Source: Escherichia coli
GTDB taxonomy: Bacteria; Pseudomonadota; Gammaproteobacteria; Enterobacterales; Enterobacteriaceae
DNA length: 64,000 nt
Strand: one strand, 5' to 3'
NCBI RefSeq assembly: GCF_002854065.1
Contig: NZ_CP024147.1
Positions 365-16,939 of the stretch are shown here, piece after piece. How positions within the stretch are numbered: position 1 is the first letter of the stretch; every line of letters starts with the position of its first letter. The notes under the pieces are model-generated. The model made no database searches, was not told where the DNA came from, and worked only from the letters and a program-made list of their open reading frames with translations. The translations under genes and the position numbers were made by a program.

Positions 365-441
365 GCGCCCTTAGCTCAGTTGGATAGAGCAACGACCTTC
401 TAAGTCGTGGGCCGCAGGTTCGAATCCTGCAGGGCGCGCCA
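365..441 (+). tRNA. argU: tRNA-Arg (anticodon UCU), argU; integration target of the prophage
   Basis: 77-nt sequence GCGCCCTTAGCTCAGTTGGATAGAGCAACGACCTTCTAAGTCGTGGGCCGCAGGTTCGAATCCTGCAGGGCGCGCCA with cloverleaf arms and UCU anticodon; 3' 45 nt repeated at 16895-16939. Confidence 0.92.
397..441. repeat. attL core: 45-bp direct repeat (3' end of argU) marking the left prophage junction
   Basis: Identical to 16895-16939. Confidence 0.85.
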
Positions 442-456
442 TTACAATTCAATCAG

Positions 457-1620
457 TTACGCCTTCTTTATATCCTCCATAATTCCAGAGTGGGACATAT
501 TTGGGACATTATCACCAAAAATGTCGTCTATTTTCCTCGCATGCTCTGTCAAATGATTAGGCGCAAGGTGAGCATACCTACGAACCATTTCTATGGACTC
601 CCATCCGCCCATTTCCTGAAGCACTGATAATGGGACGCCTGACTGAATCAGCCAGCTTGCCCAGGTGTGTCTGAGGTCATGGAAACGGAAATCTTCAATT
701 CCTGCACGACGACAAGCTGATAGCCATGATGTCTTGCTGTCGATGCGCATCTTCCTGACCGCAGGCGTTGATGTTCCATCTGCTCGCTTAGCCGCCTTGG
801 TATGTACAAACACCCATTTGTGATGCTTGCCTATTTGATCACGCAACACTTTACAGGCGGTATCGTTCAGCGCCACACCAATGGCGCGGTTTGATTTGCT
901 CTCTTCTGGATTCACCCAGGCAACTCGTCGCTGCATGTCGATTTGTTGCCATTCCAGATTTATGATGTTCGACTTTCTCAGACCAGTTGCCAGCGCAAAC
1001 TTGACGACAGATTTCAGTGGTTCGGGGCACTCATCAATAAGGCGTTTTGCTTCCTCCTTTTCCAGCCATCTGACTCGCTTGTTTCTGACCGCTGGTATCT
1101 TGATGACAGGCGCTTTTTCCAGCCACTTCCAGTCGCGTTCTGCAGCACGGAGAATGGCCTTTATCATGGCAAGATGCTTTGCCTTTGTCTGAGTTGATAC
1201 TGGCTTTGGTTCATAAACAGGCAGTTCTTTACCTTTCCTGATGGCGGCCTGAACTTTCTGTTTCCATATTTCTTTCGTCTTTCTGTTATGCATTCTGCTT
1301 ACAGCAGAGTAAATCTTTGCCTCCGAGATATCTTTAAGCCTTATACCCTCAAAATGTTCAAGCCAGAACTCAATCCGGCTTTTATCTGAATCGAGAGATT
1401 TTTTATCAGCTTTTTCCTCAAGCCATCTTAGGCAGGCCTCTTCAAAAGTGACATCAGGTAAATCCCCTAGCTTTTCTACTCGCCAGAGTTCTGCTTTTCG
1501 CTTGTCGTGCAACTCCTGAGCTTGCCGCTTGTCCTTTGTGCCAAGAGATTCCTTAATTCGTTTCCCGCCCGGGAGCGAATACGAGGCATACCATATTTCA
1601 TTTCTGCGGAAGAGTGACAT
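457..1620 (-). CDS. intD: Prophage tyrosine integrase (DLP12 IntD-like, 387 aa)
   Basis: 387-aa ORF directly adjacent to tRNA; C-terminal R..HxxR..Y catalytic region ([15 protein letters not shown]); matches remembered IntD. Confidence 0.95.
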
Positions 1621-1847
1621 TTTCTTTCCTCTGTTATGCCATCACCCGCGCTCACCTGGACAGTATGCAGCGGAGACTGAAGCGCCGCAATGCAGGCTTG
1701 CCGTGTTGTGAGGTAAGGAGATTTTGGCTTGGTTGGATCTTTACGTGTTGCCTGTAGGCGGCCTGTTCGTATCCAGTTGGTGGCGGTTGGTCTGGATATC
1801 TTAAGAAACTGACAGGCCTCATCGAGTGTGAGGCTGTATGATTCCAT
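1476..1847 (-). CDS. Excisionase-like HTH protein (Xis/AlpA type); possibly a pseudogene because it overlaps int by about 145 nt
   Basis: ORF upstream of int with HTH motif [26 protein letters not shown]; start taken at internal Met MESYSL. Confidence 0.45.
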
Positions 1848-2097
1848 GGTTACCTCTGCTTTTTGAACGCATGTCACGTAACTTCTTAATGTGTTCTGCC
1901 GTTTCGATCTCTTCTGCTATCCGATCTGCATCAGCTTTATTCACAGGTTCAAAGTCATGATTAAAGCGGAACATGCTGGCGATACATGTTCTGCCTTTTC
2001 GGATGTAGTGAACTTTGTTGTGGGTAGAACGCAGGATTTTGCAGGGAGTGCCGTGGTGGTCGACGTACCAGGTGTTAGGAAAAATGATTCTGAACAT
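1819..2097 (-). CDS. Hypothetical prophage early-region protein (92 aa)
   Basis: ORF only; position between xis and the TraR-like gene; no recognised motif. Confidence 0.3.
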   Translation of the reverse strand: MFRIIFPNTWYVDHHGTPCKILRSTHNKVHYIRKGRTCIASMFRFNHDFEPVNKADADRIAEEIETAEHIKKLRDMRSKSRGNHGIIQPHTR

Positions 2098-2144
2098 TTT
2101 TACACCTCAGTTGGACGATGTTGAAATTTGCTGCTTTGAGGCCA

Positions 2145-13931: not shown

Positions 13932-15202
13932 TAATGTTTATTACAAGTTGTCTACATGTTAATTATAATATTATACAGCGTTTTTTTTGATGTGATATTC
14001 TGGAACCATTAATTTGTAATTGGGTTGCTGTCGCCTATTTTATACATACTATAATTGATGGTTTTTTATGTGATTTAGTTAATAACCTTCTGGGTTTATT
14101 TTAAGGGTTAATTGTTACATTGAAATGGCTAGTTATTCCCCGGGGCGATTTTCACCTCGGGGAAATTTTAGTTGGCGTTCTTAAAATGTGTACTTAAGAC
14201 CAGCAGTAGTGATGAAGTTATAGTTTTCTATACCTGCTCCATTTTTGCTGTAGTCTGAAGTGTTATTATTGTGATCATAAAGTGAAGTATTACCTTTTTT
14301 ATTCGTAACCCGATTCCATGCGCCTTCAACATAAACTTTTGCGTTAGGTGTGACGTAATAACCTGCATTGACTGCAACAGAATAGTAATTTTGGTCTTTG
14401 ACCTTACTGCGATAAGTGATTCTTTTTCCCGGGTCATAGTGTTCATCGTTATCAGATGATTCCACCCAGCCGCTGTATTTAAATGTGCCACCGAGTTCAA
14501 AATCTTCATAACGATAACTTCCAGTCAAGCCAATGTAGGGCATTTTAAAACGTTGTTTGTAGCCGATTGCTCTTTCTCCATTCGGGAAGGAGCCGATATC
14601 ATCTCTGAATCCCTCCTCAGAACTGTAGATATAGGAACCACCTCTGGCTGTAAAGCTATAACGGCTTTCCTGATATCCGGCCATGAGTCCCAGGCGGTAA
14701 TTGGGTTCGTTGAGGAGCCAGCCTTTGATATTCAGATCAAATTCGTTGGCATAATTGAGTTGTGTATCAGGGTGTCTACTTTCATCCGTCCAGGTTCCGG
14801 GGTTACTGGAATCCATCCACTCCTGATCGACCATATTGCCACCTCGGCTGCCGAGAGTTGTCCAGCCAGCAGCCCCGATAGATATCTGGGGCATCAAATC
14901 CCAATTAATTGCACCTTTAATAATTGCAGCGTTATTGAATTTCCAGTCGAGTTGACTGACTTTTCGGCCTCCTTCTTCGGCTAGATAAACACGCTCTTTT
15001 GTTTTTCCGCTCAGAGTTCCAAGACTAATGTCCGCATTTATGTTGTCAGGAGTAAACGATAAAGTCTCGGTAGAAGCAAAAGAGCTGATCGCAATAGGGG
15101 TTGTCAGGACTTAGACTGGCCCCCTGAATCTCCAGACAACCAATATCACTTAAATAAGTGATAGTCTTAATACTAGTTTTTAGACTAGTCATTGGAGAAC
15201 AG

Positions 15203-15568
15203 ATGATTGATGTCTTAGGGCCGGAGAAACGCAGACGGCGTACCACACAGGAAAAGATCGCAATTGTTCAGCAGAGCTTTGAACCGGGGATGACGGTCTC
15301 CCTCGTTGCCCGGCAACATGGTGTAGCAGCCAGCCAGTTATTTCTCTGGCGTAAGCAATACCAGGAAGGAAGTCTTACTGCTGTCGCCGCCGGAGAACAG
15401 GTTGTTCCTGCCTCTGAACTTGCTGCCGCCATGAAGCAGATTAAAGAACTCCAGCGCCTGCTCGGCAAGAAAACGATGGAAAATGAACTCCTCAAAGAAG
15501 CCGTTGAATATGGACGGGCAAAAAAGTGGATAGCGCACGCGCCCTTATTGCCCGGGGATGGGGAGTAA
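15203..15568 (+). CDS. insC: IS2 InsC (OrfA)
   Basis: [56 protein letters not shown]... Confidence 0.92.
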
Positions 15569-16431
15569 GCTTAGTCAGCCGTTGTCTCCGGGTGTCGCGT
15601 GCGCAGTTGCACGTCATTCTCAGACGAACCGATGACTGGATGGATGGCCGCCGCAGTCGTCACACTGATGATACGGATGTGCTTCTCCGTATACACCATG
15701 TTATCGGAGAGCTGCCCACGTATGGTTATCGTCGGGTATGGGCGCTGCTTCGCAGACAGGCAGAACTTGATGGTATGCCTGCGATCAATGCCAAACGTGT
15801 TTACCGGATCATGCGCCAGAATGCGCTGTTGCTTGAGCGAAAACCTGCTGTACCGCCATCGAAACGGGCACATACAGGCAGAGTGGCCGTGAAAGAAAGC
15901 AATCAGCGATGGTGCTCTGACGGGTTCGAGTTCTGCTGTGATAACGGAGAGAGACTGCGTGTCACGTTCGCGCTGGACTGCTGTGATCGTGAGGCACTGC
16001 ACTGGGCGGTCACTACCGGCGGCTTCAACAGTGAAACAGTACAGGACGTCATGCTGGGAGCGGTGGAACGCCGCTTCGGCAACGATCTTCCGTCGTCTCC
16101 AGTGGAGTGGCTGACGGATAATGGTTCATGCTACCGGGCTAATGAAACACGCCAGTTCGCCCGGATGTTGGGACTTGAACCGAAGAACACGGCGGTGCGG
16201 AGTCCGGAGAGTAACGGAATAGCAGAGAGCTTCGTGAAAACGATAAAGCGTGACTACATCAGTATCATGCCCAAACCAGACGGGTTAACGGCAGCAAAGA
16301 ACCTTGCAGAGGCGTTCGAGCATTATAACGAATGGCATCCGCATAGTGCGCTGGGTTATCGCTCGCCACGGGAATATCTGCGGCAGCGGGCTTGTAATGG
16401 GTTAAGTGATAACAGATGTCTGGAAATATAG
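15526..16431 (+). CDS. insD: IS2 InsD (OrfB transposase, DDE)
   Basis: 301 aa with integrase-core region ...WCSDGFEF...LTDNGSCY... Confidence 0.92.
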
Positions 16432-16894
16432 GGGCAAATCCAGGACTATTCCCAGAAGTTTCGCCCGCATAAAAGTTCTCCATTCAATCGTTTTAATGAT
16501 TGAATATGTATTTTTTATATCTAACTTAATGAGTTAATTACATATTGCTCCACTGTTTATATTTTGTTTAGTATTGAATGATTATCACAATGCGCTATCT
16601 GTTTTTGGTTTAATTATCTGTTATTGTTTCATATTGCGGTTTTACTGTGTGGTTTTTTTTATGCTTTTGTGGTGCTTTTATCTATTTAAGTGCCATGCCT
16701 TTAGAGGCATATAAGCGAAAATAGCATGAGGTTTATCCTCAATTACTATGTTTTTTAGTACAAAAAAGAGGGACAAAACTGAGACACATAAGGCCTCGCA
16801 ATGGCTTGCAAGGCTTTACATGTTTTGAGGTAGTGGGACGTGTGAGCGCAGAGATGGCGCGGTAAGTTGTTGACTTAAAATGTCGTTCTAGGAA

Positions 16895-16939
16895 CTTCTA
16901 AGTCGTGGGCCGCAGGTTCGAATCCTGCAGGGCGCGCCA
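16895..16939. repeat. attR core: duplicated 3' 45 nt of argU marking the right prophage junction
   Basis: CTTCTAAGTCGTGGGCCGCAGGTTCGAATCCTGCAGGGCGCGCCA identical to 397-441; no 5' half of a tRNA present. Confidence 0.85.

Follow-up and report, generated by a model that had tools for sequence, protein, structure and literature searches.

A cryptic DLP12-family prophage at argU of Escherichia coli and its decay relative to viable lambdoid phages

Background

A stretch of 64,000 nucleotides (nt) of Escherichia coli DNA (RefSeq assembly GCF_002854065.1, contig NZ_CP024147.1), the whole of which is referred to here as the window, carries a block of lambdoid phage DNA at the tRNA gene argU. Two questions are raised by this locus: what the block derives from, and how it is related to DLP12 (qsr') of E. 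coli K-12, a cryptic prophage known since 1989 (Lindsey et al. 1989). A reading made from the sequence alone, without database searches (hereafter the sequence-only reading), had described a defective DLP12-like lambdoid prophage in argU, in a decay state different from that of the K-12 element. The tRNA gene, the attachment (att) repeat, the gene content and the breakpoints all bear this out, and we consider it very probable that window positions 442-16941 represent a DLP12-family cryptic prophage of lambdoid type, which entered the 3' end of argU by means of an IntD-type integrase and is marked by three deletions and two insertion sequences (IS). The element is a strain-level variant of the well-known DLP12 and is already in RefSeq, where it is automatically annotated; no paper describing its decay state was found in the literature.

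Results and discussion

Integration site and identity of the element

The element is bounded by argU and by a copy of the 3' end of that gene:

365-441, plus strand: argU, tRNA-Arg(TCT), found by ARAGORN and by the Rfam tRNA model; its 3' end, 397-443, is the attL core
16895-16941, plus strand: attR, a 47-bp copy of the argU 3' end, found by repeat search; homology to the viable phages PhiR26_1 and PhiR68_2, introduced below, stops here

The repeat search gave a direct repeat of 50 nt (394-443 and 16892-16941), the sole mismatch of which is at the third base; exact identity covers 47 bp (397-443 and 16895-16941) and brackets 16.5 kb of lambdoid DNA. An exact 47-mer repeat within 64 kb is far beyond chance, and the published attR of DLP12, a prophage reported in about 74% of Escherichia/Shigella genomes, is likewise 47 bp long (PMC6379469). 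The repeat had previously been put at 45 bp; it is real, and two bases longer.

The features of the DLP12 family are all found in the window: the argU site with its 47-bp att, IntD beside argU, a late-regulation and lysis module, right-arm cargo, and defectiveness. The late-regulation and lysis module keeps the order rusA, Q, porin, S, R, Rz, cos, nu1. The right-arm cargo genes ybcY, tfaX, appY and ompT are present upstream of attR, ompT being disrupted by IS2. Every gene listed in the sequence-only reading, from intD to ompT and including cos, the lysis cassette and the V, G and stf fragments, was recovered.

Three deletions relative to viable phages

Two phages were compared with the window over their whole genomes, PhiR26_1 (PV340555.1, 48.2 kb) and PhiR68_2 (PV340576.1, 49.7 kb). 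Both have this integrase at the start and ompT at the end. The window is collinear with both, except that three internal blocks of approximately 13.3, 8.7 and 12.8 kb are gone. The corresponding segments are as follows:

390-2562: PhiR68_2 1-2173 (440-2562: PhiR26_1 1-2123)
2561-6382: PhiR68_2 15483-19320; PhiR26_1 14428-18265
8483-9456: PhiR68_2 20231-21204; PhiR26_1 20172-21145
9448-10110: PhiR68_2 29864-30526; PhiR26_1 29817-30479
10110-10797: PhiR68_2 43280-43967 (10110-11828: PhiR26_1 43132-44850)
10834-11852: PhiR68_2 45725-46744
12621-15111: PhiR68_2 46736-49223
16441-16894: PhiR68_2 49217-49669 (ompT with attR: PhiR26_1 46731-48207)

At the first junction (J1, 2561/2562) about 13.3 kb is gone, from orf61 to ybcO; by the phage annotations this interval holds exo, bet and gam (red), immunity, O, P, ren and the nin cargo. 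At the second junction (J2, 9448-9456) the sequence passes from nu1 codon ~141 into V near its 3' end, and the ~8.7 kb gone comprises the 3' end of nu1, A, W, B, C, D, E, FI, FII, Z, U and the 5' part of V. At the third (J3, 10110), G codon ~79 is followed by the last ~125 nt of stf; the ~12.8 kb gone held the 3' end of G, T, H, M, L, K, I, J, lom and most of stf. Microhomology at the junctions is short, which fits illegitimate recombination: J1 has about 2 nt and J3 has 1-2 nt, while the 9-13 nt at J2 are an imperfect match. Three features end at or span these junctions:

2462-2562, minus strand: 3' remnant of orf61 ending at J1, identified by phage alignments; the PGAP label is a partial 'ZapA'
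9034-9858, plus strand: in-frame Nu1'-'V fusion open reading frame (ORF) of 274 aa, from translation, with PF07471, PF16461 and PF02368
9874-10234, plus strand: 5' fragment of G (~79 codons; TIGR01674 residues 1-79) fused at J3 to the ~125 nt 3' end of stf, from translation and alignments

In the fusion ORF about 140 codons of nu1 (terminase small subunit), which include the N-terminal helix-turn-helix (HTH), run on into the Ig-like C-terminus of V, the major tail protein. The ORF is probably a neutral by-product of J2.

Genes for a cI-type repressor, O/P, large terminase, portal, capsid and tail all lie within the three deleted intervals. The claim that no repressor, replication or head genes remain thus holds for cI, cro, cII, O, P and the head genes, save for the ~140 codons of nu1, and the emrE/ybcK-ybcO block of K-12 is missing as well, as the sequence-only reading had stated (alignments to K-12 and PhiR26_1). 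Since the retained segments have no repressor, no replication genes and only fragments of virion genes, the element should be unable to produce phage; judged by its gene content, it would neither replicate, nor build particles, nor be induced by the SOS response. The earlier label 'non-inducible' is therefore apt for phage production, for which immunity, replication and virion genes are all wanting; it does not extend to excision, as the excision module is intact (see below).

PhiR68_2 holds every gene of K-12 DLP12, in order, within a complete lambda-like genome. Its left part reads int ... exo, bet, gam, cI, cro, cII, O, P, ren, followed by emrE, ybcK, ybcL, ybcM, ybcN, ninE and ybcO; its right part reads rusA, ylcG, Q, porin, S, R, Rz, bor, then nu1, A ... 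J, lom, stf, tfa, and finally ybcY, tfaX, appY and ompT. PhiR68_2 is in effect an intact DLP12. No paper describing the genomes of the PhiR phages was found in the literature; one preprint, in which PhiR68.2 is used, employs them as infective phages (bioRxiv 10.1101/2025.11.03.685801). The window shares identical Int/Xis and the module order of its retained segments with PhiR68_2 and PhiR26_1, and also with 2G7b, ev243 and Kati. These viable phages are complete at 48-50 kb, whereas the window element is without ~34 kb, has another gene at the position of bor and carries two IS. Sequence identity is high in places: for the early block 1640-2562 it reaches 99.9% with 2G7b, a temperate coliphage, and at least 99% with several PhiR phages; for the appY segment it is 99.4-99.7% with Kati and PhiR68_2, both viable; the rusA-to-nu1 block is 92-97% identical to 2G7b/PhiR-type phages, and the stf-tfa block also matches PhiR phages.

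The element very probably descends from a phage of PhiR68_2/PhiR26_1 type, with an order beginning int-xis; red, immunity, O, P; nin cargo, rusA, Q; porin, and continuing S-R-Rz, cos, nu1-A, head, tail, stf-tfa, ybcY, appY, ompT. As the alignments show, three illegitimate deletions at microhomologies removed the early genes (recombination, immunity, replication and nin), the terminase and head genes through most of V, and most of the tail genes from G to stf; a T5orf172 gene came to replace bor by module exchange; and IS1 and IS2 entered tfaX and ompT, respectively, after the deletions.

No result contradicts this account as a whole, though parts of it are less firm. The PhiR phages are relatives and not the literal ancestor, as the Q-to-Rz block is only 93-96% identical to them; because they diverge, the junction positions are exact only in stretches with a local identity of 98-99%. 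As to the order of the deletions, J1 probably preceded the other two (see below), and K-12 and this strain may either share an ancient integration or have been lysogenised separately, alternatives that are taken up below.

Distribution of the decay state in E. coli

Among 5426 complete E. coli genomes surveyed for the junctions, J2 and J3 occur together in one (strain 100416) and J1 in two (100416 and CUWW06). Strain 100416 (NZ_CM128593.1; Gambia, human stool) is 100% identical to the window over 10.2 kb and shares all three junctions; it differs in having neither IS1 nor IS2 and an intact ompT. CUWW06 shares J1 but has lost the interval from the 3' end of quuD to cusC in an IS1-flanked deletion. 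J1 is probably the first of the deletions, because it is common to CUWW06. Over the core region 100416 and CUWW06 are 99.9% identical to the window, and the others among the matches listed at most 98.9%. As the same junctions are present in independent assemblies, J1-J3 are unlikely to be assembly artefacts.

In the public assembly collection 172 blocks are indexed as containing the exact Nu1-V fusion protein. The element also occurs in GCA_900449015.1, where an IS1 of the same allele sits at another site, between Rz and the T5orf172 gene. The right-hand ompT::IS2 junction was found in at least four draft assemblies (L015-L018). Neither the ompT::IS2 nor the tfaX::IS1 junction was present as one contiguous match in complete E. 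coli RefSeq genomes, the few apparent matches being two separate pieces or 85%-identical paralogues, and the exact 42-nt pattern of the ompT/IS2 junction had no match in GTDB species representatives. The variant is lineage-specific, belonging to a small E. coli lineage, and is not unique to this strain; the differences among its carriers suggest that erosion is ongoing within the lineage.

Relation to DLP12 of K-12

On the PhiR68_2 scale the breakpoints of the window element are 2173/15483, 21204/29864 and 30526/43280, and those of K-12 DLP12 are 1326/2682, 2987/9779 and 21609/43551; none is common to the two. The K-12 junctions (xis'/exo', exo'/'P and A'/'tfa) and the K-12 insertions of IS3 and IS5 were not found in the window element. 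In an alignment of the two elements the breakpoints all differ, so the window does not carry the K-12 allele. Each element retains DNA missing from the other and neither, therefore, derives from the other, which agrees with the earlier proposal of independent erosion.

The two elements share the argU 47-bp att, Int (386/387 residues), rusA-ylcG-quuD, the nmpC porin, S-R-Rz, ybcV, ylcI, cos with the 5' part of nu1, the 3' part of tfa, ybcY, tfaX, appY, ompT and attR. Only K-12 has exo', 'P-ren, emrE, ybcK-ybcO, bor, ybcW, a full-length nu1, the 5' part of A, IS3 and IS5. Only the window has a full-length xis, the DUF4222 and TraR genes, the V 3', G 5' and stf 3' fragments and a full-length tfa; compared with K-12 it also has nmpC and ybcY intact, T5orf172 for bor, and IS1 and IS2.

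To say that both are eroded versions of the same ancestral phage is justified as to the type of phage. A single integration event is not demonstrable, given the mosaic interior and the low divergence of the arms. We compared the arms (int, the 3' part of xis, the appY segment, ompT and attR; positions 457-1715, 12621-15111 and 16443-16941) with the adjacent chromosome (fimZ side, envY, ybcH and nfrA; positions 1-441 and 16985-19500). Window and K-12 differ at 12 of 4373 sites in the arms (0.27%) and at 32 of 2775 sites in the flanks (1.15%; P = 6e-6 by Fisher's exact test). Arms about four times less diverged than the flanks hint at later acquisition, or at homogenisation of the arms.

Separate or later lysogenisation, or recombinational overwriting, is somewhat more likely than a single ancient integration. 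We thus lean towards the interpretation that a PhiR68_2-like phage was acquired separately after the split of the two hosts, or that an older resident was overwritten by recombination, with decay following in either case. Besides the low divergence of the arms, this would account for the 99.9% identity of positions 1640-2562 to live 2G7b, for the identity of Int/Xis to those of PhiR26_1, for an appY arm 99.4-99.7% identical to that of live Kati and PhiR68_2, and for a lysis-block allele unlike that of K-12. However, these results need cautious reading, as the counts compared (12 versus 32 differences) are small; int, appY and ompT may also owe part of their low divergence to purifying selection, and the live phages may themselves have gained their arms from resident DLP12 by recombination.

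A single lysogenisation at argU in the common ancestor of K-12 and the window strain, followed by vertical inheritance and separate erosion, appears less probable, although a good deal speaks for it. The att site is the same and Int is identical at 386/387 residues; the right arm ybcY-tfaX-appY-ompT-attR is shared with K-12 at 99-99.9% identity; window and K-12 leave homology to PhiR26_1 at the same point, phage position 44850; and DLP12 is as widespread as stated above. These points have to be set against the arm and flank counts, by which the arms look either younger than the host split or homogenised, and against the mosaic interior, in which identity to K-12 falls to 91.7% over the Q-porin-lysis block and to 83% in ybcV, with T5orf172 in place of bor. 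Moreover, viable phages that encode identical Int/Xis and have the same appY-ompT arm are still circulating, which would make independent lysogenisation or replacement easy.

Insertion sequences and the loss of ompT

The 16.5 kb element includes 2.1 kb of IS that the sequence-only reading had overlooked; they stand out as two additional blocks when the window is compared with strain 100416, its nearest complete genome. The right arm contains the following features:

10235-10819, plus strand: tfa, tail fibre assembly, full length, 194 aa (phrog_105); K-12 retains the 3' part only
10874-11542, minus strand: ybcY, class I S-adenosylmethionine-dependent methyltransferase, 222 aa, intact (annotation, PHROGs); the K-12 copy is frameshifted
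11599-11852, plus strand: tfaX, remnant of a second tfa, cut by IS1 (repeat, annotation, alignment)
11853-12620, plus strand: IS1, 768 bp, with transposase ORFs and a 9-bp target duplication GCTTATTCA at 11844-11852 and 12621-12629
13182-13931, plus strand: appY, AraC-family regulator, phage cargo (moron), from annotation and identity to phages
14181-15111, minus strand: ompT from codon 9 to the stop, from translation, without start codon and promoter
15112-16442, plus strand: IS2, 1331 bp, with TnpA, TnpB and a 5-bp target duplication GGACT at 15107-15111 and 16443-16447
16443-16470, minus strand: ompT codons 1-8 (MRAKLLGI...) and the duplicated target, from translation

An Rfam scan of the window gave matches limited to the tRNA and to IS009 (RF02111; 229 bits), the latter at 10578-10776 on the plus strand, inside the coding sequence of tfa.

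The IS1 allele is 99.87% identical to copies at other sites in two relatives, L003 (7005-7772) and L020 (11152-11919 and 17088-17855), where it is annotated as IS1B. One IS1 allele is active in this lineage, and in CUWW06 it borders the deletion from quuD to cusC. A divergent, Shigella-type IS1 allele was considered and ruled out by this identity.

ompT had been listed among the genes of the element; it is present but no longer intact, as the IS2 insertion follows codon 8 and so interrupts the signal peptide, and an in-frame stop from the end of IS2 precedes the 3' portion. With promoter, start codon and the beginning of the signal peptide cut off from the remainder, OmpT should not be made in this strain.

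It is conceivable, though in our estimation improbable, that ompT::IS2, shared as it is by several assemblies, reflects selected loss of OmpT in a lineage that has kept DLP12. If so, it would be a third route to the OmpT-negative state, beside never having had DLP12 and excising it, and the lineage would have a second route at hand in excision of the whole island by the full-length Xis and Int. OmpT loss is a question left open for Shigella and enteroinvasive E. coli (EIEC) in PMC5723341. An EIEC/Shigella background for ompT::IS2 was considered and kept at low probability: strain 100416 belongs to a GEMS-isolate accession series, yet it is not named in the text of PMC13064198, in which eatA-positive GEMS isolates are described as being without canonical pathotype genes.

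The excision module and the question of a satellite

The left arm consists of the following genes, in addition to the orf61 remnant:

457-1620, minus strand: intD, tyrosine integrase, 387 aa, intact, from protein alignment to known integrases
1476-1847, minus strand: xis, full-length excisionase ORF of 123 aa overlapping the start of int (TIGR01764, homologues)
1819-2097, minus strand: DUF4222 gene (phrog_285), from annotation, Pfam and PHROGs
2145-2363, minus strand: TraR/DksA-type C4 zinc-finger gene (TIGR02419, PF01258)

Int is identical to K-12 IntD at 386 of 387 residues and to that of the viable phage PhiR26_1 at all 387; identity to Int of phage SfI is 74%. The xis ORF is identical to that of phages PhiR26_1 and 2G7b, and its product is 81% identical to annotated SfI Xis over 116 aa, the full length of the latter. 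Its HTH domain (TIGR01764, residues 6-35) scores 27.7 bits, slightly under the curated cut-off of 28.8. That this xis is full length had been overlooked; in K-12 DLP12, by contrast, the gene is truncated, its N-terminal 44 codons, including the HTH, being replaced by a fragment of exo.

Int and full-length Xis together with attL and attR would form a complete excision module, and the element could excise and be lost; an excised circle would be lost because it has no replicon. K-12 DLP12, with its truncated xis, excises in fewer than 1 per 100,000 cells (PMC3105296). Since K-12 excises even so, the window element may excise at least as well.

The proposal that the island is a mobilisable satellite, able like a cos-type phage-inducible chromosomal island (PICI) to excise and to have its DNA packaged by a lambdoid helper, can draw on the intact Int and Xis, both att sites, an exact cosN and ~140 nu1 codons with the N-terminal HTH region, but it is highly unlikely: the window ORFs include no replication/primase module, helper-sensing regulator or capsid-size redirection genes, every ORF and segment is accounted for as phage remnant, cargo or IS, the length of 16.5 kb is far under the packaging minimum of lambda, and deletions from a phage of 48-50 kb fully explain the architecture. 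A PICI-like satellite was rejected for want of a replication module.

Middle segment and other features of the window

The stretch between J1 and nu1 contains the following features:

2591-2953, plus strand: rusA, Holliday-junction resolvase (NF007305, 279 bits)
2950-3090, plus strand: ylcG (phrog_2705, PF26818)
3176-3559, plus strand: quuD, Q-type late antiterminator, 127 aa (phrog_79, PF06530)
3748-4830, minus strand: general porin of nmpC type, 360 aa, uninterrupted (NF007841, OmpC subfamily, 515 bits; cut-off 484)
5404-6571, plus strand: lysis cassette (PHROGs holin, endolysin, Rz-like spanin)
5404-5619, plus strand: holin S (PHROGs)
5619-6116, plus strand: endolysin R (PHROGs)
6113-6571, plus strand: spanin Rz, with an Rz1 lipoprotein ORF and its lipobox embedded in the +1 frame
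6867-7265, plus strand: T5orf172/MUG113 (GIY-YIG-like) gene, 132 aa (PF13455, 4.6e-14; PF10544, 9.6e-10)
7944-8354, minus strand: ybcV-like DUF1398 gene (annotation, Pfam, PHROGs), 83% identical to K-12 ybcV at the nucleotide level
8412-8645, minus strand: YlcI/YnfO family gene (NF041551)
8845-8856, plus strand: cosN, the lambda 12-nt cohesive end GGGCGGCGACCT, an exact match starting 189 nt upstream of the nu1 start codon

The porin gene, called uninterrupted in the sequence-only reading, is indeed a single ORF of 360 aa without IS5, which the K-12 gene carries. The frames of Q, S, R, Rz and Rz1 are all open and the lysis cassette appears intact; porin, appY, ybcY and rusA likewise appear to be retained as intact cargo genes. 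A promoter and terminator scan over 2300-5450 gave counts not above those of shuffled sequence and is uninformative on pR'/tR'.

The T5orf172 gene occupies the position of bor in K-12, PhiR26_1 and PhiR68_2, and the presence of window 6383-7767, which contains it, in place of bor is a module exchange and not a deletion. A defence role was considered for the T5orf172 gene and the other small genes; PADLOC gave weak partial matches only, none of them convincing.

Two further observations concern the chromosome beyond the element. nfrB (phage N4 adsorption protein B; 21779-24016, minus strand) is interrupted by two in-frame stops, close to codons 391 and 615, and resembles a pseudogene; in related draft assemblies the gene calls are split in the same way. 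The hokE region (38318-39287) holds a tandem duplication of ~503 bp, the copies of which are 95-96% identical, and CUWW06 is annotated with two hokE genes there.

Conclusions

Differences in DLP12 decay from strain to strain are to be expected, and there is little here by way of discovery. The outcome is a corrected annotation, with two IS, an inactivated ompT, a full-length xis and an in-frame Nu1-V ORF, and a map of decay drawn against the viable phages PhiR68_2 and PhiR26_1. The locus serves as a worked example of ongoing erosion, in which a first deletion is shared, further deletions are lineage-specific and IS1 has inserted independently; in a sister strain an IS1-flanked deletion extends into the cus operon. 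The comparison with these phages also means that the 'host-like' genes emrE, ybcK-O, nmpC, appY and ompT of K-12 DLP12 are cargo of infective phages that are still circulating.

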